From Nemertoderma westbladi (taxonomy: Eukaryota; Animalia; Xenacoelomorpha): 64,000 bases of DNA. Each line of letters starts with the position of its first letter. Position 1 is the first letter of the stretch. Of this stretch, positions 1,010 to 50,058 are shown one piece after another. A model generated the notes under the pieces. It ran no database searches and was not told the DNA's origin. It worked only from the letters and a program-made list of their open reading frames with translations. The stretch lies in assembly GCA_032718475.1 (NCBI GenBank), contig JAUCBJ010004412.1, positions 20,813-84,812 of the forward strand, written 5' to 3'. The position numbers were made by a program, and so were the translations under genes.

Positions 1010-2205
1010 TGTAAAAGCTTTTGCGGAATTAGCCGGTTATTTTATTTTCCCCGTAAAGTACTCTGTAGTTGGTTTAACAGGCATAAAAGGCCGTATCCTT
1101 ACTGTACTGGTGTTTTAGGGGACACAAAAAGCTATTTCTTCTGTATGTGTACTTTAGCGGACATAATTAGCAATTCTATGACGCAATGCGCTAGATCCTC
1201 TTGAAACAGTGTAGTTACTATGACGACAGCTAACAGCTGAGCTGTACACGTGTAGATTTTCCTTTGTTCTCTGGTGTTTCTTTGTTCGGTCAACCAATCA
1301 GAGCGATTCTCTTGCTTTTTGTACAGAAACCTCCGAGAAATCACGCAATGCATTATGGGTCAATGTTTACATTTTGTCCTGAGCCTAGAAGACCGGCTTC
1401 GGAATCTCTGTGTTTTTCAGTCTTTAGCCCAACATCAGTAGGCTTAATTATAGAACGTATATCTGTTATCTTAACAATTTCATATCAAATCAAACCTCAC
1501 TCACCTAATCATATTGTCAACTACAAACACCTCATTTTACTGCTATTTACTGTCAGTTATTCATTATATCTGTTGATGGAATGTTATTATATTGGAGAAT
1601 ATCAATCAATAATCAGACACCCCAATCTTCTTGATATACTGAAGGTTAGAGAGACCGGTTACATATAACGATTGCGACTTACATTAAAGTGGTTTTGAAT
1701 TGAATCTAATGCTATTTCATAGGCACTACATGTATTGGCTGTTGTTCTCTTTATATGTGACTAAAATTAGTGAAGGTCGGCAGATCAGTGTGCAGCATTG
1801 TGCAGTATTGTGTATGATTGTGACTGATAACAAAGCATCTCCTAAAGAATGCGCCATATACGTGAATCTATAGCCATCCCGTTGTGTCTAGTTTAAGTCA
1901 TAACTCTGTTTACATATTTAGAGCGCCACGTCCTAAAGGAACTGTTAATATTTCCCGAAAGTGAATAATATTTGTCAGAGATTATATATTACGATCAGTC
2001 GAATAATACAGTAGGCCTACACCGCAATACGGTTAGGCTTCCGAATCCAGTCTCCCGGGTATATCCAGCGGGTGAATGATCGCGCATAGACTGGCTTCGG
2101 CTAATGTAGTGTATCAAATACTTGTCATAGGCTAAAGACGATCTATTATCTAGAAGACATCCCAATTTGGCAGGTTAAACTGCTAAAGGTCTGAAAGCGC
2201 GAACA
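1010..2205 (+). repeat. 5' LTR of element A (1196 bp)
   Basis: TGTAAAAGC...GCGCGAACA, a direct repeat of 15512-16702 (13 substitutions and one 5-bp indel by manual comparison). Confidence 0.95.
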
Positions 2206-2217
2206 ATAACAGATATA
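2206..2217 (+). promoter_or_regulatory. Non-tRNA primer-binding site candidate of element A
   Basis: ATAACAGATATA directly abuts the LTR and is the exact reverse complement of TATATCTGTTAT at 1458-1469. No TGG-type tRNA PBS is present. Confidence 0.65.
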
Positions 2218-2470
2218 GCTTCTGTATTGCAGTAGGCATTGAAGCTGAAGTACCGGCAACCGGTACCTAGTAGGCCTGACAACCTAACAACCCGGACCGG
2301 TACCTACAGCAGTATTATTCGAATTTGATAATTATATACCGGTAGGCCTTAATAATTAATCAGGGACGGCCGCCCTGGTTTTTTATTGAGATTTTACTTG
2401 TTTCTGTCAGGTTTTATTTATTTGTAGGTTTATATTGAGCAGAAGACGTGTAAGCCTGCTCAGATTGTAC

Positions 2471-3050
2471 AGATAATTTGTAGGCTGGACTGTTGTCTGA
2501 CTGTCGTTAAGTCTGAAGGGACTGTAGTGTGTGTAGAGTGTATGTCCGATAAATTACTAGTTAGGAAAGTAGGGGCTTCCAGTGCTGTGAGGTAAACCCC
2601 CTCGAAAGAATAAGTCGTACTACTCGGTTAGAACGCATACTAACTAACCATTTCGGAGTCTGCATATACTGTAGTTTATTTAGGCTTGATAGTAGTCTGC
2701 CAGCGTTTGGTCTGTACTCTGTTTGTGTAGTCTGTACGGGTAGCGTAATATTTCTTATTTAGATAATTTGTAGGCTGGATTGTTGTCTGGCTGTTGTTGG
2801 GTCTGAAGGATTGCGGTGTGTGTAGAGTGTATGTCCGATAAAGTGCCAGTTGGGAACGTAGGGGCTTCCAGTGCTGTGAGGTAAACCCCCTCGAAAGAAT
2901 AAGTCGTACTACTCGGTTAGAACGCATACTAACTAACCATTTCGGAATCTGCATATACCATAGTTTGTTTAGGCTTGATAGTAGTCTGTCAGTATTTGGT
3001 CTGCATTTTGTTTGAGTAGTCTGTACACGTAGCGTAATATTTATTATTCA
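2471..3050 (+). repeat. ~290-bp tandem duplication in the element A leader
   Basis: Units start AGATAATTTGTAGGCTGGA at 2471 and 2761. An equivalent dimer lies at ~28252-28830 in element B. Confidence 0.85.
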
Positions 3051-4337
3051 GAGTTTATGCGATTATTCGCAACATTCATATCCCCAAGTTTATTCCTACA
3101 GTAATTGTGCTTGTTATATATACAGTTATAGTTAAACTAACCCCGGTACTACATCAGGGCTGCTTGGCATAGGTAAAGAATGGTGATTTTGTGCCCCGGT
3201 CACTCCAGCAGATACCGTGGTTCTTTTAGCTGTTCAAGTATTTTTAACTACTGATTATTTGTTGTATAAGTGTGTATAAGTGTGTAGGCAGTATATTTGT
3301 GTTGTAAAGTGGTTAATAGGCACGTTGGTTCTGGTAGACCGCGGTAATTAACTTCTAGGTAGGAACACTCCGTGATACATAACGTAGTACTTATAGCGAT
3401 ACGGCTATAAGTCGTCAGACGGTGGTATTTTTCCTATCTGGACAACGCAGTATATTTACTACTGCTTAGTTATTTTCAAATACCGTAGTACTCTGTTCGT
3501 TGTAATAACCGTATATTCTAACCCTTTGTTAGGCTGGTTTGTAGACTTCTTGTAAAATTACCCTAAAAATTCGTACGTGTAATTTTTGTGTTTATTTAGA
3601 GATTGTAATCTCACACCGAATTGTATGTAATTAGTAGTATTAAGTAACTTAGGTAAATTAGAATTATTTGTTTTAGTGTCCAACAAGTAGCACTTCACTG
3701 AGAGCGCACAGCTTCTGTGTAGTGACTCCCCCAGAAATAATAACATTTATTTCAAATATTGACAAAACCCATTATAGGGGTATATATATTATAAATCAAC
3801 TCAAACCGATTTATAAAATAGTAGGCCTGTCATACAACAATTAGGTCTAAAATATCAGTTGGACTACTGCTTAAATAACGGTAATCAAGTAAAGCAAAGT
3901 AACCAAGTAACCCCTGAAATTCAGAAATTCAATTATTCTAAAATAATTGACATACCGGTATCTACAATAGGCTTATTATATTTATTTCCATAAATTTAGG
4001 CCGAAATTATACCGGTATTCTGTAATTAATTCTAGTCCATATTTATACTTATATATACTATAAGTGTAGGATGTATACCGGTATTACGATAGGCCTATTA
4101 TATATTTATATATATTTGTGCTGAAATTACATACCGGTATTCTGTGACAAACCTAGTCTGTAATAATACTTATATATATACTATAAGCATACAGGTATTC
4201 TAATATATTATATATATATATCACGCTACACTGAGTAGCAGTATCGGTAATTAATTACTAGGCTAACAGTTGATACTGAATTACTAGACTTGCTTTAACT
4301 GTAATACAGCAGTAGGCATTAAACTGTACAAACAAAC

Positions 4338-7300
4338 ATGTCTGACACAAAGCAAAACCTGTCAGACAGCCTCCTAGATACAACCATCTGTGACCCAGAC
4401 AGGAGTGTGGAACGTGTGAGACCGAAGTTCAATTCACCTCCTACTGTAAGAAAGATCATCCCTCCAGTAGTAGTATCAGACCCTAGGCTAGTCCAACACC
4501 GTAGGTCTATCATAGGCACTCGAGCTCAGGTCAAGCGGGACCAAGAAGCAGCGGAACAGCAGCAACACTCGAGCCGAGAACTTATTTCTCAGCGGCCCAA
4601 CAGCTCCAGTAGTGAGGATACTGTAGAGCTGACACCCGAGCACGGAGCAAAAATGACAGATGCGGTTTATTCGGATCCCCTTCTCATCCTTCCTGCAGCC
4701 GTACTCACTAGGGTATTGATTGCGGTGGAGGAACACCAGATTGATTGGACGAGAAGTAAGCGATCGCCTAAGGATAGTTATGCGGGATACACAAGGGAAG
4801 AACTGAAGTCTATTGTCGAGTCGCAATGGAACTTCCCCGGACCCGGACTCCCGTTTGACTTATCGGAAGCTGCCTGGGAAGACATACACAGGATGGGAGT
4901 AACAAAGGAAACCATCGATCCAGCTGTGTGGAAGAGGTCCGCAGCAGGATACGTACAGGGATTCTTCAGCTCTTTGGAGAGATTAGAGGAACAACTGTTT
5001 CGACAACCACAAGGACCTCAAGAGCAGGGAGAGCTGCTTTATCAAGTTCGAGAAAGAATTCTAAGAATCAGACTAATCTTATCGGCCTTTGAGGAGGCTT
5101 CGAAAAGAAGACAAGACACATCGTTGCAAGTTGCCGTAAAGACTTGGTTTCAGCGAGTGAGTCTCAAAGTTCAAGGAACTGCCCAGTGGAAATCTCATCT
5201 GGCTGAGCGCTCAACTCATGGAGAATCAACAGATGCTACCTTTTCCCAAGTGGAAAGCGAAGCGACAGCAGAGAAACCGCATAAGAGGGATGCTATTGAC
5301 ACATATCTGTCAGACTATCAACGCTTTTTAGGTGATGAAGAGTTGAGGAGAAGGCTGGAGGGACTTAGCCCTAATAGTGAAGGAGCCAAGCTTGTGTTGG
5401 ACGCAATCGATGCGGATATGATAGCTGCGAACCAAGCTAAATTTGATGAACAACTCCGCATCGCTAGAGTCCAAGAAGAACAAATAAAGAAAAAACGTAT
5501 AGAAGACAGAAAGACAGCGGCAGTGGCAGCAGCAGTGGCAGCGGCAGAAGCGGAAAGAAAAGCAGCAGCAGCAGTGGCAGCGGCAGAAGTGGAAAGAAAA
5601 GCGGCAGTGGCAGTGGCAGCGGCTGAAGCGGAAAGAAAAGCGGCAGCAGCAGTGGCAGAGGCCGAAGCGGAAAGAAAGGCGGCAGTGGCAGCAGCAGAGG
5701 CAGTGGCAGAAGCAGAACGGAGAGCATCTGAAGAAACCACCCAACTGGAATTGGAAAACATTCAAGAGAATCAAGACTGCATAAATAAACAATTAACAGC
5801 TAGTCAAATGCAGATGATGAGGCGATCTACTCCCAAGAGGCAGGGATATACATCATCTGAGGAAGGCGATACCACCGATCCTGAAGGCGGAGGAAATAGA
5901 TCTCGTCTAAGCAGACGTAGAAGAATATCCCACCGTCAGAAATTGCCTGATTTGCCCCCAGCTGTTAGAAGGCAACTAACTAACACAAACTTAGGTAGTA
6001 CAGAACCCACAGACCAAATAATTAAAATAGAAAGACTCCCTACTATAGTAGATGAGCCTGAAATAATTAGGCCTGTTCTCGAAGCCACCCCTTCGGTGAT
6101 AGAGACACCTGTACTCCCTGAACCTACCTCTAAATTCCCTTTGCATAGCACTAAGCTACCTGTGCCCAGCAGAACAGCCCAGGAGACAGTTCATGTCCTG
6201 GACTCCGAGCGAAATATTAATGATTTGTCGCCCGTTGTCCCTCGTCCGCCCAATACAACGTTGGTGGCTCCCGCTTCGGCGGTCGAGTGGGTAGATGAGA
6301 GACGGCGGGGGATGGATCTCCTGCTCGGGCAGATGCAGGAGACTGTTAAGCAGTTCAAGGGCACAGTAAGGGAAAGTAGGTTAGAGTTGCAAGAAGTGCA
6401 GCAAAGTATCGCGTTAGAACACGATAAATTAGTAAATACACAAAAGGGTATACCACCACCCCCTGTAACAATGTGTCAACCTGTTAGGTCTGAAGTATTT
6501 CATGCGCAAGGTGTGGAGCCTACACGCATCTATACTGCTAGCGAAGTGGAAACTCCTATAGTAAACCCTATTAAGGGTAATTATAAACCTGTTGACAATG
6601 ATATTCCATATAGACTTGATAATAATCCGAGAAATTTATATACCGATAACTCGATATTAAATAACACGATGGCCCAAGAAAGTTTTACGCGTCAAATGGC
6701 TAGAACCGAAGCCCGTCAAGCGGTAAAGGTGGGAGAGATCGTCAAGTTCAATGGAGATGAGATGAAATGGTTACCTTTTAATGAATATTACAAAGATAAC
6801 ATACAGAACTCTGTGCTATCAAACGGAGAGAAACTTAGATTCCTCATCGAGTGCTTGGAAGGATCTCCCAAGTTAATGGCGTTAAAGTTTATTGGACATC
6901 CAGATGGATTAAGACAAGTTTGGGATACCATAAACATCAGGTATGGTAATAGGAATAACATCGCTAGGTATTTGTATGCAAAATTGGTAGCGCCCCGAAA
7001 ATTTATTAGCAGCGGGATTTAGAGTTTTCCGATGAGATTCAGGAGATCTGTAGACAATTAGATTGGCTAGGTATGTCTCATGAATATCAGAGTTCTATGG
7101 TTATTGGAGCCGTGGCTTCTACTTTACCGAAGGGTGGAGTAGGTACACGCTGGGATAAGAAAGTGTTATATATGATGGAACAACAACGACGAGACCCTAC
7201 CATGGCTGATCTCATGTCATTCTTAGATGGAGAAGTGAAATTACAGCTCCTAAGACAGTCCAGAGAGAAGACACCGGAAAACAAGGTAAGTGAGAAACCC

Positions 7301-10300
7301 GTTTCTAGGAGAAAGGTAACACCAGTGTGTTATACCGACGACGGCGAAAGCCAGGCTTCTCAAGGAGAAGACAGCGGGAAAGACACTGAAAGATCTTATT
7401 ATGTCAACAAAACGCCCAAAGACGTAAGTAAATTCAGGTCTCGAACCAATGACAGGAGAGAACAGGTAAGAAAAACCCCTCCTATGTCTCCTAAGAGAAT
7501 TCAGGTAAGAAAGCCCGAAGAAAGAACGAGTGTGCACAACGTTACTCAAAATAAGGTAAGTAACATCAAACCGAAATGTGCGCTGTGTGACGGGCCCCAC
7601 CGTTTGAATGTGTGTGATGAATTCCTAAAGAAACCATTAACGGAGAGACGGGAAGTCATGTGGGATAAGCGGTTGTGTTATAATTGCCTCAGACAAGGAC
7701 ACCAACGGCGAACCTGTTACTCCGACACAAGGTGTGCAAAGTGCGGTGCTAAACATCATATCTTGTTGCACACTGAATTCGAACGAAACAGCAAGTAACA
7801 GTAAGTAATTCCGAACTACATGTCGAATTCAGTGATGTGAACGACACTGACCAAAGTTCTGAGATGGAAGGATTCTATACGGATGAATTCTCCGACGAAG
7901 ATGAATCCTGTTACATGATAAATACCGCAGTGTATCGAGCACTTACGTATGAAAAAGACACAGACAGCGACCTCACCCTAACTACTTCTGATCGACAACC
8001 ATCTTGGAAAGCGCCAACTTCCAATGTAGGAATCCGAGAATTTCCAGTAGTGCAGTTAAGGGTCCACGGACCTAAAAGGAGTTATATAGTGAACGCCCTT
8101 CTTGACTCCGGTAGCACAGGAACATTCATCGACAAAGAACTAGCCGAAGACATCTTTGCTGGACAACCCAAGTGCCGAACTAAGCTAAATATGTCAGGAA
8201 TTATGCAGGTTTGGAAATCTACAGTAGTAGCGGATTATTATGTAGGTACGTTGTCCACCCCCCAGGATGAACTAGGAGAACATAGTATAAGGTCAGTAAA
8301 AATGGTGGCGATAAAGAACTTCGCTACCAGCCAAGTGGAACCTTATAACTGGGATGAGGACGATTTCACCCAGCAGCTTGAAATACCTAGATTCAACACC
8401 GATTACCCTGGAGAGCAAATACTCATCGTTCAAAACGCGCATGAAGCGCTCGAGACATTGGAGAAACGGCCTGCTCAACCGCAACCACTACAAGCTTATG
8501 CGGGAAGAACTAGAGTGGGTTGGTAGTTTACTGGCCCTTCCCGTAGAACTCTCATGGAAAGATTACCGAAAGATCAGGTATATCAAGTAAGAGAATGGGA
8601 AGTGGAGAGTAGTGAGTTAGACGATCCAACTGAGGGAACACCATACTCTTCAGATAACGACGATATCCACCAACTCTTCGACGAGGAGAATACCATTGAT
8701 CTCCTTAAGGAAAACGAGACTTGGCAAAACCAAGTGAACTTATGTCAGCTCCTTCGTCCATCAGAACGAGACGACTATAACGACGAACTGAATGACGTCA
8801 TTGAACGTTATAATGCCAAGACTCGGGATGAACACGCCGTACGATTCTTTACTCAAGAGGCTGTAGAGCCCAATTCCTACGATAAGGCCCTATCGGTAGA
8901 AGAAGAAAGAGCCAAGCAGATCCAAGAGACAACTACACGTTTTCTTAAAGATCAAGGTAGATATGAAATCGGTCTACCTTTCCGAAAGCGAGAACCAAAG
9001 TTCATAAACAACAAACCCTTGGCGGAGAAAAGAATTGCTCAACTACATCGACGCCTTACGGCAAATTCTTCAGCTAAAGAAATGTATCAAACGCAGTTGA
9101 AGAAATTTATTAGCAAGGGATATGCGGAGCGAGTACCAGAAGAAACACCTATAACTGAGAGAACATATTATTTAACTCACCATTACGTTCCCAAACCTGG
9201 TAAACCCCATGAGGTACGAGTAGTGTTTGACGGCTCCGCCCTCTACATGGGCCAATCCCTTAATTCCGAATTGTTACCCGGACCCAACTTACTCCAATCC
9301 TTGTTGGGAATACTCTTAAGATTACGTCAATATTCAATCGCTTTCGCCTCAGATATAGAAGGCATGTTCTTACAAGTCAAGGCGCTGGATAGGGATCGAG
9401 ATAGCCTACGATTTCTGTGGTGGCCTGAAGGAGACCTCAACCAGAAACTGGTGGAGTACTGGATGACCATCCAGGCTTTTGGGATAATCTCAAGCCCTTC
9501 AAACGCCTGTTCAGTGGTGCGCACCACTGCGGATGACAACCGAGAAGCCTTCTCTAAAGAGGTGATTGACAACATCAAACGGGATATATACATGGACGAC
9601 AATCTAAAGTCCCTTCCATCAGTCGAAGAAGCCATTGATGTCGCTAAAGGAACGGTAGATTAAAGGAACGGTTAAAAAGAGGTGGATTTCGATTAACTAA
9701 ATTCACCAGCAACTCCCGTGAGTTTCTGGAGTCGATCCCTGTAGAAGATCGAGGAGCGAAAGACCTAGATCTAATCAAAGATGATCTTCCAGAAACCAAG
9801 ACACTTGGTTTGAAATGGGACACAGAGAGAGATATCCTGTTTTTCCAGCTAAAACAGCGAGATAATCCAGTTCGGACTAAACGGATTTGTTTAAGTATCC
9901 TGAGCACTTATTTCGACCCATTGGGATTTATTAGCCCAGTTATATTGATTGCTCGGAGTTTAGTACAACAAATGTGGCTTGAAAACCACTCATGGGACGA
10001 TCCACTTAAGGGAGAATTATTAAAGAAGTGGATGAAATGGGAAGATTCTCTACCAGCCATCGAGAACTTTATAATTTCCCGTTCATACTTTGGTCATGTT
10101 CTCCCTACGTATTCCTACCAACTCCATATGTTTGGAGACGCCAGCGATATGGGAATAGGTATAGTAGCCTACCTAAGAGTGGAAACTCCGGATGGAATCA
10201 AAGTCGCCTTGGTTACCTCTAAGGCATTGATAAACAACAAGTTGAAGAGTTAAAAGGAGTTAAAAGCGGAGTTAAAAGCGGCTCTATACGCTACAGCCAT

Positions 10301-12461
10301 CGGCTGGAATGTAACAGAACAGATCGACTATCCACTGGAGAAAACTGTCTATTGGACCGATGCTTTACTCGTGTTGGAGTATATAACCAATGAAGTCTGT
10401 CAGTTCAGCGTCTTCGTTACCAACAGAGTAGCCATTATACTTAGTCGCACGACGATGGATCAATGGAGACATTGCCCCGGAACGATTAATCCAGCAGACA
10501 TCGCCTCCAGGGGAGCAACTCCACAAGAACTGGTAGATACTCCAGACTGGTTAGGTGGACCCGACTTCCTCTACAAAGAAGAAGAAGAATGGCCTCCTCA
10601 TCTTACTACAGCAGAGATTAGACAGGCCAAAACTCGGGCGAGTAAATCGAAGTTATTTAAAACTATAGTAGATCTGTCTGTACTACATACTTCCGGAGAC
10701 GACGCTTTGGATCAGAAACCCACAGCCACAAATAAGTCTGTAGTGGAAATCCGTGAGAAGGATTGGAAATCTGGAATACCAGACGTCTCGCAAGGACTCT
10801 CACCTCTCCTGCAGAGAGCGATACATCACTACAGTTCCTGGAATCGGCTCTGTAAGGCCGTCACATATTTAAAACGATGTTTTCATCATCACTACTCCGG
10901 GACGAAGACCAATAGTGATACCGCTCCACTAACATCGGTGCAGGTCCATGTTGTTAAAGATCTTCCCAAATATAAGATATCCAACAGGTTTCTGAAGGAG
11001 AAGATCAGTTATCAGGAGCATGAAGAAACCAACAAGCAGATGCTGAGACTCCTGCAATGCTATGAGGATTCCGATAAGTATTTCCTGTTGTTGAGAAATC
11101 CACAGATGCGCTTAAGGGATCGTTTCTCTAGCACAATGATAGATGGGTTGATACGTGTTGGAGGAAGATTAACGAATGCTCCATTATCCTTTGACACTAA
11201 GTTTCCCATACTCATTAGAAATCTTGAGATACAAGTCAAGATGATTGTAGATGTTCACAGCAAACTTTATCATGCTGGTAGAGAACGAGTTCTTAGCGAA
11301 ATTCGAACTCGCTATTAATTTTATAAACCCCGTAGAGCTCTGAACCAAGTTCTTAGGAACTGTATACCCTGTAGGAAAGCATTCAGTAGGCCTTTAACAC
11401 AGCGAGAGGCAGAATTACCTAGGGAACGAGTAAGCTTCTATGAACCACCCTTTACTAATACCGGTGTAGATTTATTTGGCCCTATTGAAGTATATCGTGC
11501 TAGGACTATAGTCAAGAGATGGTGTGTCATCTTTGTTTGTATGACTTGTAGAGCTATCCATCTCGATATGGTGAACGATTTATCTACCAACAGCTTCCTA
11601 TTAAGCTTACGACGACAGATCGCTCGCTTTGGCACTAGTAACACGATGAGATCTGATAAGGGAACAAACTTCATTGGTGCCAACAATGAAATCAAAGCTT
11701 ACGTCAAGGATTGAAACCAAAGACAGGTGGACGATCAGCTACGAGTAACAGCGTCTAGCTGGAGCTTCAACGCCGCCGACGCCCCTTGGTGGGGAGGAAG
11801 TTGGGAGAGATTAATAAGAAGTGTGAAGACCGCATTTCACTTTATAGTGCCGTGCCGCGCGTATCTCACCGACGAACTTTTGAGGACGTTAATGGAGGAA
11901 ATCTATCTCAACGAGAGACCGCTTATGCCAGTCTCATCGAGTCCCGATTCCCTGGAAGCGCTAACACCCGCGCACTTCCTACTGAAGAAACCTGTAGCCA
12001 TGCTCCCCCAATCGGAAATCACAGACGGAGACGAATACTGCCGGAAAACTTGGCAACTCATGCAGTTGTTATCCCGTCGTTTCGCTGACCATTTCGAAAA
12101 ACATTATCTGCCCACGCTACAACTTCGAACTAAGTGGTTTGCGCAGCAAGAAAACGTCAGCGCTGGAGACATGGTCCTTATTGTGGATTCAGATCTTCCA
12201 CGTAAGCGGTGGCAGACAGGTCGTATCATCGAGACTCACATCTCGGATGATGGTTTGGTGCGATCGGTAGAACTCGTCGTCATGCGACGTAACTTCAAGA
12301 AACCGGGAATTGTCTTCGAGACACAGCAGCTCAATCGCCCAGTTGGTCGTTTATGTTTACTGGAAAGAGACAGAGAACTCTCCGGAAACTATGGCAGGCA
12401 AGATACTCTTCCCACGACCACCTCCCTAATCCAACAAACATCTAGGGACTCCCCAACTTAA
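4338..12461 (+). pseudogene. BEL/Pao gag-pol of element A, broken by stops and frameshifts
   Basis: Gag DUF1759-like KFNGDEMKW..LSNGEKLRFL; triple Zn knuckle ending CAKCGAKHHILLH; protease ALLDSGS; RT DIEGMFLQV and YMDD; RNase H FGDAS and NPADIASRG; integrase GVDLFGP, SDKGTNF and WWGGSWERL; C-terminal WQTGRI..DGLVRSV. Lesions near 7020, 7796, 8524, 9661, 10251, 11316 and 11712. Confidence 0.95.
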
Positions 12462-15500: not shown

Positions 15501-15511
15501 TCTGGGAGCGG
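15501..15511 (+). promoter_or_regulatory. Polypurine tract of element A
   Basis: TCTGGGAGCGG immediately before the 3' LTR TGT. The same motif precedes the LTRs at 26709 and 50059. Confidence 0.75.
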
Positions 15512-16702
15512 TGTAAAAGCTTTTGCGGAATTAGCCGGTTATTTTCCCCGTAAAGTACTCTGTAGTTGGTTTAACAGGCATAAAAGGCCGTATCCTTACT
15601 GTACTGGTGTTTTAGGGGACACAAAAAGCTATTTCTTCTGTATGTGTACTTTAGCGGACATAATTAGCAATTCTATGACGCAATGCGCTAGATCCTCTTT
15701 AAACAGTGTAGTTACTATGATGACAGCTAACAGCTGAGCTGTACATGTGTAGATTTTCCCTTGTTCTCTGGTGTTTCTTTGTTCGGTCAACCAATCGGAG
15801 CGATTCTCCTGCTTTTTGTACAGAAACCTCCGAGAAATCACGCAATGCATTATGGGTCAATGTTTACATTTTGTCGTGAGCCTAGAAGACCAGCTTCGGA
15901 ATCTCTGTGTTTTTCAGTCTTTAGCCCAACATTAGTAGGCTTAATTATAGAACGTATATCTGTTATCTTAACAATTTCATATCAAATCAAACCTCACTCA
16001 CCTAATCATATTGTCAACTACAAACACCGCATTTTACTGCTATTTACTGTCGGTTATTCATTATATCCGTTGATGGAATGTTATTATATTGGAGAATATC
16101 AATCAATAATCAGACACCCCAATCTTCTTGATATACTGAAGGTTAGAGAGACCGGTTACATATAACGATTGCGACTTACATTAAAGTGGTTTTGAATTGA
16201 ATCTAATGCTATTTCATAGGCACTACATGTATTGGCTGTTGTTCTCTTTATATGTGACTAAAATTAGTGAAGGTCGGCAGATCAGTGTGCAGCATTGTGC
16301 AGTATTGTGTATGATTGTGACTGATAACAAAGCATCTCCTAAAGAATGCGCCATATACGTGAATCTATAGCCATCCCGTTGTGTCTAGTTTAAGTCATAA
16401 CTCTGTTTACATATTTAGAGCGCCACGTCCTAAAGGAACTGTTAATATTTCCCGAAAGTGAATAATATTTGTCAGAGATTATATATTACGATCAGTCGAA
16501 TAATACAGTAGGCCTACACCGCAATACGGTTAGGCTTCCGAATCCAGTCTCCAGGGTATATCCAGCGGGTGAATGATCGCGCATAGACTGGCTTCGGCTA
16601 ATGTAGTGTATCAAATACTTGTCATAGGCTAAAGACGATCTATTATCTAGAAGACATCCCAATTTGGCAGGTTAAACTGCTAAAGGTCTGAAAGCGCGAA
16701 CA
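15512..16702 (+). repeat. 3' LTR of element A (1191 bp)
   Basis: Direct repeat of 1010-2205, followed by TSD ATTCG. Confidence 0.95.
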
Positions 16703-16866
16703 ATTCGATTTAACCCTGTATTTCACTTTCAGTCTCTCGTTTCAAATTTCCCACTAGACTCGGCGTGAAATACAGTGCTACTTTATTTAATCGAATATAT
16801 AGAAATATAGTTATTATTTTTATTGTACTTCATTCAATTATCTGAAATCACTAAATAATGATGAAC

Positions 16867-17084: not shown

Positions 17085-17620
17085 CTGTGGATAAATGTAA
17101 TAAAAAAAATACCAGGACATATTTAGAGACAGGTCATTTTATTCCCTGCAGGTAATATTTAATTTACACAACCATTATCTTTACTTTTAAGTCATAAAGA
17201 CCATTAATATAGGAGCGGTGTTCATAAAATATTAATACTTTGTTTTTTTTATATTTATAGATACAATTTTTGCAATCTATAAATAGAAATATATTAAGTG
17301 GTGTTTTGATCTCTGTTTGTCGGGATATTTGAAATCATTGTTATCTGCACTCCTGCGGGCCTGAAATTGATCTGCAACGACACACTCCAACCAAGTTAAT
17401 TAATAATGAATATCTTAAGTGAAGAGAACGGCCGACAAAGCTGCACAGGTGGGCTTTCTATCTATTTTTTATCACTAATTTAGTGAAATAAAGTATTTCG
17501 ATTGCAGGACTAATAGTGAAAGAAACCTACTTCCTTTTAATGTTCTTCCAAATTGAATTGCAAGATAAAGTGAATATCTTTATGGGGTGCAGTCAATTGC
17601 CCAATATACAATTTTCCCAA

Positions 17621-18392
17621 TGAGTCACTTGCCCAATAAAAATCAGACAAGTCACTCGCCCAATAAGAATCAGATGAGTCACTCGCCCAATAAAAATCAG
17701 ACGAGTCACACGCCCAATAAAATCAGACGAGTCACTCGCCCAATAAAAATCAGACGAGTCACTCGCCCAATAAAAATCAGACGAGTCACTCGCCCAATAA
17801 AAATCCGACGAGTCACTCGCCCAATAAAAATCAGACGAGTCACTCGCCCAATAAGAATCAGACGAGTCACTCGCCCAATAAATATCGGACGAGTCACTCG
17901 CCCAATAAAAATCAGACGAGTCACTCACCCAATAAAAATCAGACGAGTCACTCGCCCAATAAAAATCAGATGAGTCACTCGCCCAATAAGAATCAGACGA
18001 GTCACTTGCCCAATAAAAATCAGACGAGTCACTCGCCCTATAAGAATCAGACGAGTCACTCGCCCAATAAAAATCAGACGAGTCACTCACCCAATAAAAA
18101 TCAGACGAGTCACTCGCCCAATAAAAATCAGATGAGTCACTCGCCCAATAAGAATGAGACGAGTCACTTGCCCAATAAAAATCAGACGAGTCACTCACCC
18201 AATAAAAATCAGACGAGTCACTCGCCCAATAAAAATCAGACGAGTCACTCGCCCAATAAAAATCAGACGAGTCACTCGCCCAATAAAAATCAGACGAGTC
18301 ACTCGCCCAATAAAAATCAGACGAGTCACTCGCCTAATAAAAATCAGACGAGTCACTCGCCCAATAAAAATCAGACGAGTCACTCGCCTAAT
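17621..18392. repeat. 27-bp minisatellite (~28 copies)
   Basis: Unit GAGTCACTCGCCCAATAAAAATCAGAC, with degenerate shorter units on both flanks. Confidence 0.95.
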
Positions 18393-18680
18393 AAAAAATA
18401 AAACAAAAACTAAAAATGAGTCACTTTCCCAATAAGTCATTTCCCCAATAGGTCACTATTGCCCAATAAGTTGCTAAAAATCACCCGATTCTACAAAATT
18501 AATTACACTCTCCAAACATAGGTTGTTACATGTCTCATTTTGATAATTCTGTTCTGGGAATTGGATTTACTCAAAAATTGTTTATTATTTCGCATAAACA
18601 ATACATTCTACAAAGTTAATTTCAAAAATTACAAACATTCAAGACCTGTTATCGCAATGCAGTCCCTTTTATACTATACT

Positions 18681-20635: not shown

Positions 20636-21243
20636 AACTACAACAGCTAGTCAGTATCGGGAGGGTGTAAACGTTACGCCTACAGCAGACCACCGACTGC
20701 CGACAGCACACAACAGTCACTCGATAGCAGACAACCAAAGTAAATAACCGACAACAGCCAACCGACAGGTGACAACCGACAGCAGACAACCAAAGTAAAT
20801 AACCGATAGTAGCCAACCGACAGGTGACAACCGACAGCAGACAACCAAAGCAAATAACCTATAGCAGCCAATCGAAAGCAGACAACCAACGTCAACAACC
20901 GTCAACAAACAGCAGCAGACAACCGAGAGCAGGCAACAGACAACCGACAGCGCACTTCCGACAACATACAACCGACAGCTGGCAACCGAAAGCAGACAAC
21001 CGACAACAGACAACCGACAGCGTACAACGACAGCACACAAACACAACCGACAGCAGACAACCGACAGTAGACATGTGACAGCATATATATAAACGCTATA
21101 AAATACTTTAAGGATAAATTTAAAAATGACAAATTCTTCATATTTAATTTTTCAATAAAATTTCGACCGAAAAGTGAAAACCTGATATTCTTTACATGGG
21201 CGTGCATTCTTAAAAATGCAGCTGCAATCCAGCATGCCGATCC

Positions 21244-21275
<32 letters not shown>

Positions 21276-21745
21276 AAGTCGGTTGTTTACTGTGTGCTGT
21301 CGGTAATCTGTTGTCGTTTATTTTCAGTCGGTTGTCTGTTGTCGTTTGTCTATGATGAGCTGTCGGTTGTCTGCTGTCGGTTATTTACTATCTGCTGTCG
21401 GTTATCTGTTCTCGTTTGTTTTCAGTCGGTTGTCTGCTGTCTTTTGTCTATGATGAGCTGTCGGTTGTCTGCTGTCGGTTGTTTACTGTCTGCTGTCGCT
21501 TATCTGTTGCCATTTGTTTGCTGCCGGTTGTCTGCTGTGAGTTGTTTACTGCCTGCTGTCGGTTATCGTCGTCGCTTGTTTGCTGTCGGTTGTTTGCTGT
21601 CGGTTGTTTACTGTCTGCTGTCGCTTATCTGTTGTCATTTGTTTGCTGCCGGTTGTCTGCTGTGGGTTGTTTACTGTCTGCTGTTGGTTATCTGTTGTCA
21701 TTTGTTTTCAGTCTATTGTCTGCTGTCGTTTGTCTAACTGAGCTA
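20636..21745. mobile_element. Foldback-like non-autonomous element with inverted arrays of degenerate short repeats
   Basis: Left arm (~20680-21075) is built of CAGACAACCGACAG-type units. Right arm (~21277-21735) is built of the complementary CTGTCGGTTGTCTG units. Ends and TSD not resolved. Confidence 0.55.
21204..21273 (+). mobile_element. Severely 5'-truncated LINE 3' end with (TAG)n tail
   Basis: GCATTCTTAAAAATGCAGCTGCAATCCAGCATGCCGATCC(TAG)10 matches the reverse complement of the LINE 3' UTR at ~22701-22743. Confidence 0.75.
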
Positions 21746-23440: not shown

Positions 23441-23578
23441 ACATGTTGGCGTAAACACCGCGACGACGGTACATCGGCGCTGAGAATCCCACTGTCCGGG
23501 GGCAAAGAGAAGTAGGCAGCGACGCCCGCTCGCCTAAATATAAACTTATTTTGATATTAATAAACTCAGATAGCAGAT

Positions 23579-23956
23579 ATGACGGAGTTGATAGAAGATG
23601 ATCTTGGTATTAGGGAGCGATATACTCTACCTTTGCAAGCATTTGTGGATAGCTTAATACGCGGTGAAGCCGATCCAACCATTACGGAGGACGATGGTCG
23701 TTATATCGAACCGCCGATGTCCCAAGAGCAACTTGCGCGTGAATTGGATTATCGAAAATTCACCGCTCGCTATACGAATCGTAATGGTACGTATATGGAC
23801 TTCTTAACTACCGGCCATCCTATCGATTTACATGACACGGACGATGTAGATACAGAGAGGGAAATGGTTCTATTTAAATATCATACCCAGCGGAGTCGTA
23901 ATGATAAACCGAGAATGGAACACGAGAATTCTATTCGAAAACAACTCGAAAGATAG
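23579..23956 (+). CDS. 125-aa N-terminal part of BEL ORF3 (unknown function)
   Basis: Identical protein at 46929-47306 and a diverged homolog at 14076. TATAAA about 40 nt upstream in all copies. Confidence 0.55.
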   Translation: MTELIEDDLGIRERYTLPLQAFVDSLIRGEADPTITEDDGRYIEPPMSQEQLARELDYRKFTARYTNRNGTYMDFLTTGHPIDLHDTDDVDTEREMVLFKYHTQRSRNDKPRMEHENSIRKQLER

Positions 23957-24855
23957 AACGTGGAAGAAAGCTTGTAAAGACAAATAGAGGAGAACACTGA
24001 AGAAGAGACATGGGTTAATGTCCAGGGTCCATGATGTGAATAGTTTTTCCCCGGGGCACGGGTGCTCGCGGGCGGTCTCCTTCGGGAGGCTGTAATTTCT
24101 CTTCCTTCATCGTTTTCCTGTAATTATTGTGATCAGTGTCACAATTAAAGGGCAAGAATGAATGATGATGTGACGGAAACATGTCCATTGTGGTATCTTA
24201 TGGATACTACCATATATCCTCCCTCCTCTTTACTCCCTTTATCCCTCTATACATCGCTATTGAAAATACAACATACTTCGTCCCACCTTCTCTTCCCAAT
24301 GTGCTCGGAGCTTTGGGAGACGATCGACCAATCATTGCCGTATCGTGGTATGGATCATACCGCCTCCTAATAAATCCCCCCACCCCTTACTGTTTATTTG
24401 TATGCTCATATTGGTGTCCGCACCTCTTGTCCATGTCACATTCCACATTCTGTTGATATTTATGATATCAACTTCCACCCTCTCGTTGTTGATTAGAAAA
24501 TCAACCACCAATAATTTCCTTAAGTCCGCAACCGTGATACAAACAAGGACTGAAAGGACACGAGGATAGTTTGTGAACAACTGGTACCATTATGTGTCAT
24601 AAATCTGGTTGTTCACCTCCCTCAATGATTGGAGATATAAATCTTATGTAGAACAACTGAGACAAACATATCCTTGAACTGGTGTTTATCTCCTCGCACT
24701 AGGGATAAATTCATTTGGAGATAGTCTTCGAACGATTGAATCCTCCAACTGAGAACTGAGATCGTATTTCTGAATATTTCTGAATACGACATAGGTCTTC
24801 CCCTGCTCTCTACCACTACCATCAATGGAAGACATATTAGGCATACAACGGGAAT

Positions 24856-26385
24856 ATGGAGAACATTCCATACCCTTTCGTTGATACTCAGCTGATTGCT
24901 CCCTGGGCAGAAGGTCGAGGTTTCTTCCGCACCATGTATGCTAATACGTCTAGCAACATTACAAAGGTGCAACGAACTTCCATCGGACATCTTGCCTTTC
25001 AGGAATACGGAAGGAATTTCAAAGTCGGAAATCCCATTAACTATCAACAAGTATACGGAGACCATTATTCTCGATTATACTTCGATGGACCATTGACCGC
25101 ACCTGGCGCTGTGTATAGCTTCATGAGTGTTCCACTCCGTCCCTCCTTAGCTATATACACAATCTTTGAAAACACCGCACTTGCCGGTTGGCTAGCCGAT
25201 GTGTGCAGTCGTACTATACGCGCCCATCCATTAATACTTGGGACCAAACTCGCTAAGCTAGATGAACATAATAAATTCATCCGCTTCGAATGTTTCCGGC
25301 GATTTTTAACCCCATTCCGCAACGTGGATAGCCAATTTAAAGACCGCGCTTTGACCAAGCTCAGCCTAAGAAACTCAGCTGCAGAGAAGTTGGATAGCGC
25401 TGGATTCGCCGTTTTCAAAGAGATTTGTATATCGAACTTGCACTCCTCTGTTATACAAAGACCTCGAATCCCCACAGGTTATTCTGTCGTGGAAATTCAG
25501 ACAATAGGTCCACCTGAAGAGACAGACACGCCCACCTCAGCTATGCACGTGGAAGACGAACCAATATGTCTAGAATCTGAGGAGATTCAGCCTATCGCGC
25601 CCCGGAACAGCGACAACGATTACATCATAGAATGGTATCAAGGTCCACAGTGTCTCACTGCGTACGATTATCGACATGCCAACTATGTTTCTAGGCAACG
25701 TTGTCGGTTATGTGCGTCGAGAGATCACGATACGCCCATGGACACAAACGTCCGCTGTTCCTATTTCCAAGAACAACCGACTATGGAAATTTATTGCGCA
25801 TATTGCAGACTCAATAACTTGCACATATTTGCGGTTTGCCCTCAATTTATGACTCAATGTCACCATTGTCAACTAAAGGGACACGCCAGTTTCGATTGCC
25901 CTTTTAATCGCGATTTGGAAAGCGTAGATGAAATGATCACACTACGTTACATCAGAGCTTGGGAAGCGAACGCTGATTTACATTGTGATTCGCGCCATCG
26001 TTATTATCCCGGACGCGCTTACGAAGGAGTTTATGCGTTCCATCCTTATCTATTCGCTTCGGTCGAACAGAAATCACGCATATCGAGTTACGAGCTACTG
26101 AAGCGCGTCGGAGAATGTATTTCAACCAAATTCGTACGCAAATTTCTCAGGAGTGTTAATCCTAGCGACCTTCATTCCTATAACTTAATCAATTATATCC
26201 GTCAGGATCCGGACTATGGAGACTTGTTTGTTAACTCACACCCCGAGTTACAGGAAGTATATCGACGGCCTTACGAATACCGAGCCCGCGAACGCGAGTT
26301 GGAAAGAACCATTAAACCCCGGAGGTTTCTAACTGCCTATGGTCCACCCACGGCCCTCGTTCAGACCTTCGTAAAGGACCCGTAA
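24856..26385 (+). CDS. 509-aa retrotransposon accessory protein with three Cys/His zinc-knuckle-like motifs
   Basis: Long intact ORF with CX2CX4HX9C, CX2CX5HX4C and canonical CX2CX4HX4C at ~25702-25899. Second copy at 48206-49735. Confidence 0.7.
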   Translation: MENIPYPFVDTQLIAPWAEGRGFFRTMYANTSSNITKVQRTSIGHLAFQEYGRNFKVGNPINYQQVYGDHYSRLYFDGPLTAPGAVYSFMSVPLRPSLAIYTIFENTALAGWLADVCSRTIRAHPLILGTKLAKLDEHNKFIRFECFRRFLTPFRNVDSQFKDRALTKLSLRNSAAEKLDSAGFAVFKEICISNLHSSVIQRPRIPTGYSVVEIQTIGPPEETDTPTSAMHVEDEPICLESEEIQPIAPRNSDNDYIIEWYQGPQCLTAYDYRHANYVSRQRCRLCASRDHDTPMDTNVRCSYFQEQPTMEIYCAYCRLNNLHIFAVCPQFMTQCHHCQLKGHASFDCPFNRDLESVDEMITLRYIRAWEANADLHCDSRHRYYPGRAYEGVYAFHPYLFASVEQKSRISSYELLKRVGECISTKFVRKFLRSVNPSDLHSYNLINYIRQDPDYGDLFVNSHPELQEVYRRPYEYRARERELERTIKPRRFLTAYGPPTALVQTFVKDP

Positions 26386-26708
26386 GAGCGGCTGTCTTAA
26401 AACGAGCTCTCAAAGCCGTTAGACCCCTCTCCCCCGACGTTGATGTCAATCAACCCGGTACTTCGACTGGCGGATACACCGACCATAATCCTACACCCTC
26501 TGATGCAATCATATTGCACCCTTCACCCAGGAGTTATAGCCCTCCTTGTAAAGTGGCTCGCCCCAAAGAGAAAAGGACTCTGGCTAGCTTTAAAAAACTG
26601 CGTAAACGCCGTCCGCGCAAGAAAGACTAACTGTTTAGAGTATTTACATATATTAGAAACTGTGATTTTTGTATATTTATAAACTTGAATCCCATTTTCT
26701 GGGAGCGG

Positions 26709-27887
26709 TGTAAAAGCTTTTGCGGATATACTCAGTCCCCCTCGCCCGCAAGGTACCGTTATAGGTGTTTTAACGGACATAAAAGTCATTCTTCTATATA
26801 CGTGCTTTGGCGGACATGGTAAGGCAAAAAACCCGCAATGCACCAAATACCCTTGCACAGCTTAGCCTTGATGATTCAGATTACGACATCTAACAGCTGG
26901 TTGCTGACATGGAAACGGCCATTGGACACATGGTTCTTTGTTTAGCTTAACAGCCAATCAGAGCGATTTTTTCTGTCGATGTGGAGATATTTTGGCAGAT
27001 CATACTAGGAGTGTTCAGTCTTACTGTTTTTCTTGATACTGTTGTGTTGTTTCTATCTAGGCCAGGAACACCGGCTCTAGAGTCAACTCGTTTTCATACT
27101 TTAGAAGAAACATTAGTAGGCTTAAATTATAGAGCGTATAACTGTTATCTTATCTCAGTTCAGTCTTACATTATCGGTTCAACATACATTATTATACTGC
27201 TATTTACTGTTGTCATTATTTGTATCCGATGGTTGAATATTATTTGGAGAACATCTATAAAGAACCCAAATTTCCCAATTTTCTTGATACACTACAGGTT
27301 AGAGAGACGGGTTATATATAGCGATTGCGACTTATATTGTTGTGGTTTGTAGTGAATTTAATGCTATTTGATAAGCACTACATGAGTCCGTTGCTGTTCG
27401 CTTTATATATGATAAAATTCATTGACGGTCGGCAAATTAGTGAGCAGTATTGTGTGTTACCGGTAGTGTGCCTGATTGTGACTGATAACTAAGCATTTCC
27501 TAAAGAATGCGCCTCATACGTGAATCATAAGCCTTACCGACTTGCCGTTGTGATTAGTATAAGTCATATCTCTGTTTACCTAGATAGAGCACCACGTCCT
27601 AAAGGAACTGTTAATATTTCCCGAAAGTGAATAATATTAGTCAGAAATTATTTATTAACGATCAATCGAATAATACAGTAAGCTTACACTGCAATAATAA
27701 TCTAAGCCCTCAGAATCCAGTCTTCCGGGTATATCCAGCGGGTGAATGGACGCGCACTAGGCTGGCTTCTGCTAATGTTGTGTTTATTGGTATTAAATAT
27801 TTGTCAACTTCTAAAGTCTATTTATAAACCAAAAGACATATAAATTTTGGCAGGTTAAACTGCTAAAGGTCTTCAAAAGCGCGTACA
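26709..27887 (+). repeat. LTR of element B (1179 bp), shared between tandem copies
   Basis: TGTAAAAGC...GCGCGTACA, preceded by the PPT and followed by the PBS-position sequence. Confidence 0.93.
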
Positions 27888-27898
27888 ATAACAGTTAT
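27888..27898 (+). promoter_or_regulatory. Non-tRNA primer-binding site candidate of element B
   Basis: ATAACAGTTAT abuts the LTR and is the reverse complement of ATAACTGTTAT at 27138-27148. Confidence 0.65.
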
Positions 27899-29940
27899 TG
27901 ACTTTATTGGAGTAAGCAATAAAGTATAAAGTACCGGTCGACCGGTAAACCTGAACCGGTACTTCTGTAGGTCAGTAGGCCCAACTGCCAGAACCGGTAC
28001 TGCTGTAGGTCCGTAGGTCCAACTGCCAGAACCGGTACTTCTGTAGGTCCATAGGCCCAACTGTCCTAACCGGTACTTCCAGTATAAGTACATTAGTATT
28101 ATTCGATTTTGATTATTGTATACCGGTAGGTCTCGATATTAAATCGGGGACGCCTGGTTTTTATTGGGATTTTACTTAGGTCTATTTCTGTCAGTTTTAT
28201 TTCCTAGTAAGTTAATATTGAGCTGAAGACGTGTAAGTCTGCTCAGATTGTTCAGATAACTGTAGGCCGGACTGTTGTCGGATTGTTGTTGGGTTTGGAG
28301 AGATTACGGCGTGTGTAGAGTTTGTCCGATAGAGTGCCAGTTAGTAAGTTGGGGCAGCCATAGCTGTAAGGTCAATCCCCTCTTAAAGAATAAGTCGTAC
28401 TACCGTGTTAGAACGCATACTAACTAACCATTTTGGAATCTGCACATACTGTAGTTTATTTAGGCTTGACAGTATTCTGCCATCGTTTAGGCCTGTGTTT
28501 GTTTGTGTGGTCTGTTCAGGTACCGTAATAGTTATTACTCAGATATTTTGTAGGCTGGATTGTTGTCTAGCTATTATTAGGTCTGAAGAGATTGCTGCGT
28601 GTGTAGAGTTTGTCTGATAAAGTGCCAGTTAGTAAGTTGGGGCAGCCATAGCTGTAAGGTCAATCCCCTCTTAAAGAATAAGTCGTACTACCGTGTTAGA
28701 ACGCATACTAACTAACCGTTTCGGAATCTGCACATACTGTAGTTTATTTAGGCTTGGTGGTAGTCTGCCAGCGTTTGGTTTGTATTTTGTTTGAGTATTC
28801 TGTACGGGTAGCGTAATATTTATTATTCAGAGTTTATGCGATTATTCGCAACATTCATGTCCCCAAGTTTATTCCTACAGTAATTGTGTTTGTTACACAT
28901 ACCGTTATAGTTAAATTAACCCCGGTACTACACGGGCTGCTTGGCGTAGGAAAAGACTGGTGACTTTGTGCTTCGGTCACTCCAGCAGATGCCGTGGTTC
29001 TTTTAACTGTTCAAGTATATTTAACTACTGATTATTGTTGTACCAGTACTTGTACCTAATCTAGGGTTTAGTGTACAGTGCTTTCCGAAGGTAATTAGTG
29101 TGTAGGCAGTATATTTGTGTTGTAAAGTGGTTAATAGGCACGTTGGATCTGGTAGTCCGCGGTAATTAACTTCCAGGTAGGAACACTCCGTGATACATAA
29201 CGTAGTACCTATAGCGATACGGCTATAGGTCGTCAGGCGGTGGTATTTTCCTATCTGGACAGTGCAATATATTTTTACTACTACTTATTATTTTCAAATA
29301 CCGTAGTACCCTGTCCGTTGTAATAACCAGAATTCTAACCCTTTGTTAGGCTGGTTTGTAGACTTCCTGTAAAATTACCCTAAAATTTCGTACGTAATAT
29401 TTTTGTTGTGTTTAATTAGAGATTTAATCTCACCCATATCGTAAGTAATTTGTAGTATTAAGTAACTTAGGTAAATTAGAATTATCTGTTTTAGTGTCCA
29501 ATAAATAGCACTTCACTGAGAGCGCACAGCTTCTGTGTAGTGACCCCCCAGAAATAATAACATTTATTTCAAATATTGACAAAAAAACCCATTTTAAACG
29601 GGTATATAAATATTATAAATCAACTCAAACGATTTATAAATAGTAGGCCTGCCATACAACAACTAGGTCTCAATATAAGTTGGACTACTGCTTAAATAAC
29701 GGTAATAAAGTAAGTTAAAGTAACCAAGTAACCCTAAAATATTCAGAATTTCAATTATTCTAAAATAATTGTCATACCGGTATTTACCATAGGCTTATTA
29801 TATTTATTTCTATAAATTTGGGTTGAAATCATACCGGTATTCTGTAATTAATTCTAGTTCATAATTATACTTATATATACTATAAGTGTAAGCTGTATAC
29901 CGGTATTCACGATAGGCCTATTATATATTTATATTTACAA

Positions 29941-40019: not shown

Positions 40020-40714
40020 AATTATCGTTTTGTGCAATTTATAACATTCCCAAAATTCCATTAATTAATAGATCATGGGAGCGGAGATTCATCCTATTGA
40101 GTGTATTAGAGTGCGAGAATCTCCAACATATAGTCAAAAGCCGATAAAATTAATAAAATCATGCATAAAGAGAATATTGACAATTAAAGAATTATTATTA
40201 AATAGCATCCCAGATCTGTATGCATGAGAATTACCCTAATTCTACCGCTAGCATTCCATAATGTCACCATAGCAACACCCACGCTAGAATTAGAAGCAAG
40301 TTAAGAGAACAATAGAAAGCTTGTCCCATTGCGTAGCATAGCGCCAGCCGGTTTAGGCCCTGCCCGTCTATCTGCCATCCCTGGTACTGACGGCACTGCC
40401 AACTACCAGATAGAAGTATAGGTCTGTCTGTGTAGTACTGGTACAGCAGAACGTGTTGCGTACCGATGACCGATCTGTTGTTGTTACTTCTTCTGACTGT
40501 GTTTGCGTTATATATATATCTATGCTTACTCGTGTAATTGATCAATACAGTTAACCCGCTTCACTCACCACATTGTTCCTTACGCTATTGCTTCACTTCT
40601 GGCGTGGTGTCACCGTGTGCTTCGTTTCCCACTCCTCGCCATCTACTACAATAACAGATCCATCCACTCAGCCCTCCTTACGTCACAGACTTACGCTACC
40701 TACTTACCGTTATC

Positions 40715-45505: not shown

Positions 45506-45928
45506 AGTCCACCCCACAGTTAGACGACGTCCCTGAGCAGCCATTGCACAGTGCTTCTTCATCTGACCCACCCAACACCCGTCCTCGTAGAGAACGCCGC
45601 CCTCCGCAATACTACGGGTTTCCCTGACGCACCTCCCACGTTCCCGGACAGTTGCACCTTGTCACATGACTCGCCCCAACGCAGCCTGTCTCCAGTTCCA
45701 TTCACAGTTCTGAGTTTGTTCTACTTACATACGTCCTACCCGACTTATAATGGACTCCCAATTCTAAACTAGCTTTCGCCCTACCATTAGGTTGTTTCGT
45801 TGTACCCCACCATAGTTTTGGTCATGCTTTATGTGTTGTCATAAATTCAAATTTATATTTTTAGCGCAATCATTTTTGAGTGATATTTTACCATGTAAAA
45901 TTTACTACTGATTTAGTTGACCTTAATA

Positions 45929-46014
45929 ACCCCTGTAGCTCAGGTGGCAGAGCGCCCGAACCGCAACCTGTCGGTCTCGAGTTCGATCCTTAGGAAAGCC
46001 AACTGTTTTTTTTT
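45929..46014 (+). ncRNA. tRNA-derived Pol III cassette (not a functional tRNA)
   Basis: A box TAGCTCAGGTGG with D stem GCTC/GAGC, B box GAGTTCGATCC, and a T9 terminator at 46006-46014. The acceptor stem does not pair. Confidence 0.6.
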
Positions 46015-49735: not shown

Positions 49736-50058
49736 GAGCGGCTGTCTTAAAACGAGCTCTCAAAGCCGTTAGACCCCTCTCCCCCGACGTTGATGTCAAT
49801 CAACCCGGTACTTCGACTGGCGGATACACCGACCATAATCCTACACCCTCTGATGCAATCATATTGCACCCTTCACCCAGGAGTTATAGCCCTCCTTGTA
49901 AAGTGGCTCGCCCCAAAGAGAAAAGGACTCTGGCTAGCTTTAAAAAACTGCGTAAACGCCGTCCGCGCAAGAAAGACTAACTGTTTAGAGTATTTACATA
50001 TATTAGAAACTGTGATTTTTGTATATTTATAAACTTGAATCCCATTTTCTGGGAGCGG

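Follow-up and report, generated by a model that had tools for sequence, protein, structure and literature searches.

How do BEL/Pao retrotransposons without a recognisable tRNA primer-binding site (PBS) begin reverse transcription? For Belpaoviridae (Semotivirus) the ICTV profile describes an 18-nt PBS for tRNA-Arg or tRNA-Gly, with the host tRNA as primer (PMC8742986), in agreement with the premise of the original prediction for this locus that BEL/Pao elements are normally tRNA-primed. The window analysed here, the whole 64-kb stretch of Nemertoderma westbladi DNA, holds two BEL/Pao elements, A and B. Neither carries an 18-nt PBS for host tRNA-Arg or tRNA-Gly, a feature that is a description and not a phylogenetic criterion, and the predicted lack of a TGG-type tRNA PBS after the 5' LTR holds for both. 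No tRNA genes were found in the window. Comparison of sequences indicates that A and B probably start reverse transcription from their own RNA and not from a tRNA (self-priming).

The two elements are assigned to BEL/Pao because Pfam finds DUF1759, Peptidase_A17 and DUF5641 in both, which bears out the placement for which an RT tree had been proposed as the check. They share with Belpaoviridae DUF1759, protease, RT, Peptidase_A17/RNase H, an integrase zinc finger and DUF5641, the domain order PR-RT-RH-IN, TG..CA LTRs (1.2 kb in A and B), a polypurine tract and a 5-bp target site duplication (TSD), the last in A only, B being in a tandem arrangement; both exceed the element length of 4-10 kb in the ICTV profile (PMC8742986). 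All 120 of the homologues listed carry PF05380. Pfam found no chromodomain in either element, which speaks against membership of the Ty3/gypsy chromoviruses (Tf1/sushi), and a PDB sequence search with the B RT-RNase H returned nothing useful. The parts of the elements are:

1005-1009, no strand: left TSD of A (ATTCG), identical to the 5 bases at 16703-16707
1010-2205, + strand: 5' LTR of A, TGT...ACA, 98.5% identical to 15512-16702
1294-1298, + strand: CCAAT box-like motif in A, with a B counterpart at 26954; a presumed promoter element
4323-12461, + strand: gag-pol of A in several frames, with stops and frameshifts; DUF1759, protease, Peptidase_A17, DUF5641
15504-15511, + strand: purine-rich tract of A, adjoining the 3' LTR and identical in B
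15512-16702, + strand: 3' LTR of A, holding a second copy of the complement described below (15955-15966)
16703-16707, no strand: right TSD of A (ATTCG), matching 1005-1009
23441-26708, + strand: duplicate of the 3' internal region of B, preceding the B 5' LTR, 99.6% identical to 46791-50058; tandem, with the LTR shared
26709-27887, + strand: 5' LTR of B, 99.2% identical to 50059-51230
29848-38508, + strand: gag-pol of B, interrupted by stops and frameshifts; the RT YMDD motif and the acidic motifs of RNase H are present
50059-51230, + strand: 3' LTR of B, holding a second copy of the complement (50488-50498)

Both elements are young, since their LTR pairs differ by few substitutions (13 over 1196 columns in A, 3 in B). 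Pol is broken in both, with RT and RNase H motifs retained in B. As predicted, the A LTR end is fixed by the ATTCG TSD, present on both flanks; that of B was set by where its two copies diverge. The B 5' LTR has no TSD because it belongs to a 4.45-kb segment (23441-27887) that duplicates the 3' end of B itself. These near-identical copies (23441-27887 and 46791-51230) differ by 8 substitutions and represent either tandem elements with a common LTR or an assembly duplication.

Several further features of the window were recorded. Between pol and the 3' LTR, B has an additional 514-residue open frame (24841-26385; 48191-49735) that A does not have; with Cys/His knuckle-like motifs, a weak match to zf-CCHC_3 (E 0.13) and Atlas matches below 0.9 to CCHC proteins, it looks nucleocapsid-like, not envelope-like. 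The 2-kb leaders of A and B contain a 290-bp tandem duplication (2471-3052 and 28248-28831), and short palindromic repeats directly after the PBS are expanded in B (27929-28078). A 47-bp block of U5 is identical between the elements (1925-1975; 27594-27640) and has the highest coverage of any part of the LTR in each of the four runs aligned. Nested in B at about 40341-46506 is a Gypsy-like element with a 1616-aa protease-RT-RNase H-integrase frame (integrase by Atlas, 0.95), flanked by direct repeats of about 265 bp that end in CGCCA..TGGCG, not TG..CA, with TAG on both flanks; its PBS is of TGG type and finds no complement within the element's repeat. A tRNA-like stretch lies in the 3' non-coding part of this nested element (about 45930-46000); it has A-box and T-loop-like motifs, is uncalled by ARAGORN and Rfam, and could be a decayed SINE head or the remnant of an element-borne primer. 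Inverted minisatellite arrays with terminal inverted arms, possibly foldback or MITE-like, occupy 20670-21740 and 52060-54520, and satellite arrays of 27-bp and 17/19-bp units lie at 17590-18400 and 57800-63540.

In A and B the sequence next to the 5' LTR is the perfect complement of a site inside that LTR, and the coordinates predicted for these sites proved exact:

1458-1469, + strand: PBS complement in A, the predicted 3' end of a self-primer
2206-2217, + strand: PBS of A, adjoining the LTR, not of TGG type; exact reverse complement of 1458-1469
27138-27148, + strand: PBS complement in B; host contig alignments stop at 27149
27888-27898, + strand: PBS of B, exact complement of 27138-27148

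The match is 12 nt long in A and 11 nt in B, the two LTR sites are homologous, and complement and PBS lie about 740 nt apart. This is the Tf1-type arrangement, a PBS next to the 5' LTR that is complementary to LTR-derived RNA over about 11 nt. It is specific to each element: the A PBS against the B LTR, and the B PBS against the A LTR, give a longest match of 7 nt, the LTRs being about 76% identical over R-U5. A complement recurred in 8 of 20000 dinucleotide-shuffled LTRs for A and 29 of 20000 for B, and matches of at least 11 nt were reached from 5 of 13276 internal positions in A and 8 of 12420 in B. No intron was found within the complement of either element: the best split in A gives 7 nt, and B offers no split at all. 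Predicted duplex energies are modest (-10 to -12 kcal/mol), and B is unexceptional against shuffled LTRs (13-25 of 200), a comparison that discriminates poorly. The original prediction leaned on covariation, and the lone difference between A and B within the 11-mer is indeed mirrored in the PBS; as evidence this is weak alone, since the helix survived in 161 of 500 simulations in which the same differing columns were kept and their letters redrawn at random. Divergence of the leader downstream, also claimed, holds for the first bases after the PBS but not beyond, where identity is 85% (2305-4114 vs 28089-29937).

With the covariation between A and B this weak, the test needed independent families, and distant BEL relatives supplied them. 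These relatives are 31-43% identical in protein, and the nearest full-length proteins 36%. Scanning metagenome contigs with a profile yielded 79 BEL loci; searches with exact LTR motifs found no match in metagenome or viral contigs, and protein scans of viral contigs were empty. Twenty-six of the 79 loci were typed, the others having no LTR or PBS, duplicating typed loci or being unreadable. The LTR end was fixed independently of the PBS in 12 of them (11 by two-copy divergence, L017 by the 3' LTR of a sibling), which with A and B makes an anchored set of 14. In thirteen of the 14 (11 of 12 without A and B) the element's own LTR holds a perfect complement of its PBS, 10-14 nt long, and the PBS pairing begins 0-5 nt past the LTR end. 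This complement is contiguous in four (A, B, L005, L006); in the other nine (L001, L014, L017, L030, L038, L041, L045, L059, L064) it exists only across a predicted GT-AG intron of 77-366 nt. Donors in eight of these nine read GTAAGT, GTAAGC, GTAAGG or GTGAGT, and pyrimidine tracts precede the acceptors. In L038, for example, the donor follows base 833, exon 2 runs from 912, and the joined exon ends are complementary to 1017-1030 (14 nt); the predicted junctions of L045 and L059 are 907/985 and 4182/4281. L064 was counted once the rule for donors had been relaxed, a change made after this locus had been seen; with the first, stricter list the count is 12 of 14, and the controls were repeated under the relaxed rule. 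From downstream leader/gag positions the same search reached at least 10 nt in 26 of 2131 cases (1.2%). Each PBS against the LTRs of other elements did so in 40 of 756 pairs, 32 of them inside two sets with the same or nearly the same PBS. One 11-mer is common to four of the 13, which have about ten independent, unrelated PBS strings among them, so that no single host RNA fits. The predicted tRNA-independent self-priming in BEL/Pao is strongly supported, by the distant relatives and not by the lone A/B change.

The single exception, L073, has a TGG PBS and belongs to an insect clade, grouping with Aedes and Ochlerotatus (mosquito) BEL proteins with a support of 100. In trees built without named reference elements (Sinbad/Sparrow/Surcouf, Suzu, Tas, Dan and Flow were absent), the branch of A and B is long and unresolved and falls outside this mosquito BEL group, with L001 and L005 as weakly placed neighbours; eleven loci were left out of the first tree and two out of the second on account of short overlap. 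Contiguous L056 nests among split L013, L036 and L021 (support 98.7-100), which suggests intron loss. The PBS of L059, a split locus, has the same first six letters as those of A and B. Fourteen further loci with inferred LTR ends, picked because a match was seen and hence illustrative only, show matches of 9-14 nt (11 split, 3 contiguous), and among loci with inferred ends paired two-sided changes separate the close relatives L025 and L027, and L021 and L036. At four loci (L037, L065, L067, L074), some of them near A and B in the tree and all with LTR ends that are not fixed, no match was found at a recognisable PBS. A poly(A)-like hexamer lies 3-124 nt after the complement in 18 of 25 relatives, which places the complement in R; in the LTRs of A and B AATAAA is absent and ATTAAA occurs at non-homologous places, none common to the two. 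Two other observations concern the relatives: a PBS-like 13-mer in about four tandem copies directly follows the LTR of L009 (1067-1180), and in L036 (1-15821) three or more identical BEL units stand in tandem with common LTRs.

The A/B family is also abundant in DNA runs of the host, where summed contig depth does not equal copy number. On B, depth falls between bins 27145-27149 and 27150-27154 from 94082 to 18535 in run X1, from 71510 to 10346 in X3 and from 290 to 120 in X4, that is about five-fold or more in X1 and X3 and about two-fold in X4 (DNA contigs from three studies). Many contig pieces end at 27149, and in all three studies unlike loose ends start there. The drop in depth and these loose ends indicate that conservation stops one base past the complement, where the primer is predicted to have its 3' end. 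On B the conserved stretch of the host contigs starts near 27092, and on A four joints depart from the reference at 1470-1475. Among the 40 of 379 rows listed for contigs aligned to A, no variant was seen at either site and no GT-AG joint. No substitution is listed inside the 11-mer, which is not a count because contigs break at variants. Two contigs of run X5, which has no alignment over the B LTR site, carry a further PBS variant. The single run presumed to be RNA likewise gave no alignment at the B site.

If the complement is the 3' end of a primer, where does the RNA start? The LTR and leader of A contain five perfect helices of at least 9 bp, three of which recur at homologous places in B: that between complement and PBS, and two termed H1 and H3:

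1417-1422, + strand: initiator-like motif, candidate start near 1419; imperfectly kept in B
1420-1429, + strand: 5' arm of H1 in A, pairing with 2130-2139; upstream of the start originally proposed
2130-2139, + strand: U5 arm of H1 in A, pairing with 1420-1429
27098-27107, + strand: 5' arm of H1 in B, pairing with 27808-27817
27808-27817, + strand: U5 arm of H1 in B; 4 bases are missing here in the B 3' LTR
1999-2009, + strand: U5 arm of H3 in A, pairing with 2312-2322 and enclosing the PBS
2312-2322, + strand: leader arm of H3 in A, pairing with 1999-2009
27664-27676, + strand: U5 arm of H3 in B, pairing with 28096-28108
28096-28108, + strand: leader arm of H3 in B, pairing with 27664-27676

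H1 is 10 bp long and perfect in both elements despite three two-sided changes, a pattern that survived in 19 of 500 null runs; it was singled out of the five helices after the fact, and two sequences only are compared. The sequence of H3 is the same in A and B, so its covariation is uninformative. In A the 5' arm of H1 lies about 30-40 nt upstream of the complement, next to the motif at 1417-1422, which we take to be initiator-like. In retroviruses another segment of the primer also pairs with U5, upstream of the PBS, in a helix that crosses the main duplex (the primer activation signal). H1 resembles this signal by analogy only: the retroviral primer is a tRNA, whereas here the element's own leader would serve.

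The H1 arm upstream of 1459, the initiator-like motif and the conserved block from about 27092 together argue for a longer leader and a primer of about 50 nt. On these sequence features the primer is more likely to be a capped leader, about 50 nt long and paired with the PBS through its last 11-12 nt, than to consist of the first 11 nt. Synthesis would then begin as follows. RNA polymerase II would start in the 5' LTR some 40 nt before the complement, probably near 1419 in A and 27097 in B. The complement, an exact match, would fold back on the PBS beside the LTR end, with the 5' end of the leader likely paired to U5 (H1) and the U5:leader helix H3 enclosing the PBS. By analogy with Tf1, the element's RNase H would cut just 3' of the duplex to leave a 3'-OH; B retains RNase H motifs, and it is as the source of the primer that this cleavage is proposed. 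As in LTR elements generally, where RT copies U5 and R and then jumps to the 3' end, RT would copy U5 and the remaining R and transfer to the 3' end, and the 3' LTR copy would restore the leader that was cut off. In tRNA-primed elements, plus-strand synthesis copies the primer into the PBS. Here the same step would recopy the primer into the PBS every cycle and keep both sites matched, and such recopying would account for perfect matches whose letters change freely, even over splice junctions. In the split relatives the complement would arise only on removal of the predicted GT-AG intron in the LTR, A and B being the intron-less form of the same design. The intron would be restored from the unspliced 3' LTR copy; if the 3' copy were spliced too, it would be lost, giving the contiguous form of A and B. 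Complementarity, position, specificity and splice-like signals can be read directly in the sequences, and this scheme as a whole is likely to be the best explanation of them.

The original prediction differs from this scheme only in the start site: as in Tf1 itself, transcription would begin at 1459 in A and 27138 in B, and the first 11-12 nt would be the entire primer. The duplex has the Tf1 length, the PBS adjoins the LTR and the complement is contiguous, all as that version requires, and the 27 nt upstream of the complement are 90% identical between A and B, as a core promoter could be. In nested folding, moreover, the primer:PBS helix reaches a probability of 0.92-0.94 only for RNA that spans the complement to just past the PBS, and at most 0.02 once the RNA is extended either way. 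However, folding a fragment inherently favours any helix that joins its two ends, and the folding program cannot model crossing helices, as the primer helix, H1 and H3 are. H1 requires 1420-1429 to be within the RNA, and no TATA-like hexamer was found about 30 nt upstream of the complement in A or B. In the split relatives a start at the complement would make the first exon 4-8 nt long; 6 of 20 split loci have a TATA-like hexamer, 39-171 nt upstream of the donor. We regard the Tf1-like start as rather unlikely and, given self-priming, a leader longer than the duplex as moderately probable.

Two explanations would dispense with self-priming. The pairing may be regulatory or structural, serving to hide the PBS or in dimerisation or packaging, while the primer is a host tRNA fragment or other small RNA; half-tRNA priming is known in Copia lineages, according to the text consulted of PMC6317226. 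A host primer would keep the letters of the PBS constant, whereas they vary freely among families and always track the family's own LTR, splice junctions included, and the helix starts within 0-5 nt of the LTR end, the place at which priming has to begin. This makes a regulatory role without self-priming improbable. A chance match in AT-rich sequence, arisen in the ancestor of A and B and passed on to both, could be entertained for two related copies with LTRs of about 76% identity over R-U5, a mirrored change that a third of null runs retain (161 of 500) and a duplex as modest as that given above, unexceptional in B. It is largely refuted by the relatives, 11 of 12 of which, when anchored, have the same design against a control rate of 1.2%; the position-specific probability is about 0.1% per element, and conservation of the host copies stops at the 3' edge of the complement. 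We give chance hardly any weight, and self-priming remains the preferred reading.

How does such priming compare with known systems? Tf1, Tf2, Tj1 and the Tf1/sushi group resemble A and B, in the text consulted, in having no tRNA PBS and an 11-nt duplex between LTR-derived RNA and a PBS beside the 5' LTR. Tf1 is a Ty3/gypsy chromovirus, whereas A and B are BEL/Pao by their domains. The available text on Tf1 describes a 'pretzel' of three helices around the PBS (bioRxiv 10.1101/2022.12.06.519325; PMC7175516), a number shared with A and B, and cleavage by RNase H 3' of the duplex (PMC7175516). The two PBS-adjacent side helices of the pretzel have as partners LTR sequence downstream of the primer (bioRxiv 10.1101/2022.12.06.519325). 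This geometry is absent from A and B, whose two further conserved helices are not PBS-adjacent but lie 66-200 nt from the PBS; and while the Tf1 primer is, in the same text, the first 11 nt of the mRNA and the side helices use the downstream LTR, one arm of H1 lies upstream of the complement. An intron-spanning complement, as in the relatives of A and B, is undescribed for Tf1 in the text consulted (bioRxiv 10.1101/2022.12.06.519325, PMC7175516). The portions available of PMC6317226 and PMC4600332 describe or predict self-priming in Tf1/sushi, Tcn1 and Copia TAR elements, and those of PMC3601003 and PMC5445492 mention it in other groups. In the Copia TAR lineage (Houba, Osr-1) and the Tcn1 clade it was predicted from PBS-LTR complementarity; these are plant Copia elements or Gypsy chromoviruses, and the relevant text of PMC6317226 does not mention an intron-split primer. 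For BEL/Pao, no passage on the PBS occurs in the available text of PMC3118150, PMC554778, PMC6238403, PMC8556966 (main text) and PMC4131045, and those seen in PMC8220671 are generic only. No report of BEL/Pao self-priming was found in the literature searched; subscription journals, Repbase or supplements may hold one.

On balance, and with some reservation, we favour a large, mostly aquatic branch of BEL/Pao that does without tRNA priming. Its LTR exons would be joined by the spliceosome to make a capped-leader primer, so that splicing would gate reverse transcription; the intron would be recopied from the unspliced 3' LTR and occasionally lost, and A and B would be intron-less descendants with a leader:U5 helix acting like the retroviral primer activation signal. 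Such priming would explain why PBS finders fail on elements of the A/B type, and it offers a simple rule for their annotation. It also gives testable form to the question, raised in the part available of PMC3601003, of whether self-priming predates tRNA priming. If true, each of the three LTR superfamilies would include self-priming elements, and over a wide part of BEL/Pao such priming would be the rule; a primer formed by the end of a longer leader, and in most relatives by a splice junction, would couple host splicing directly to the onset of reverse transcription.
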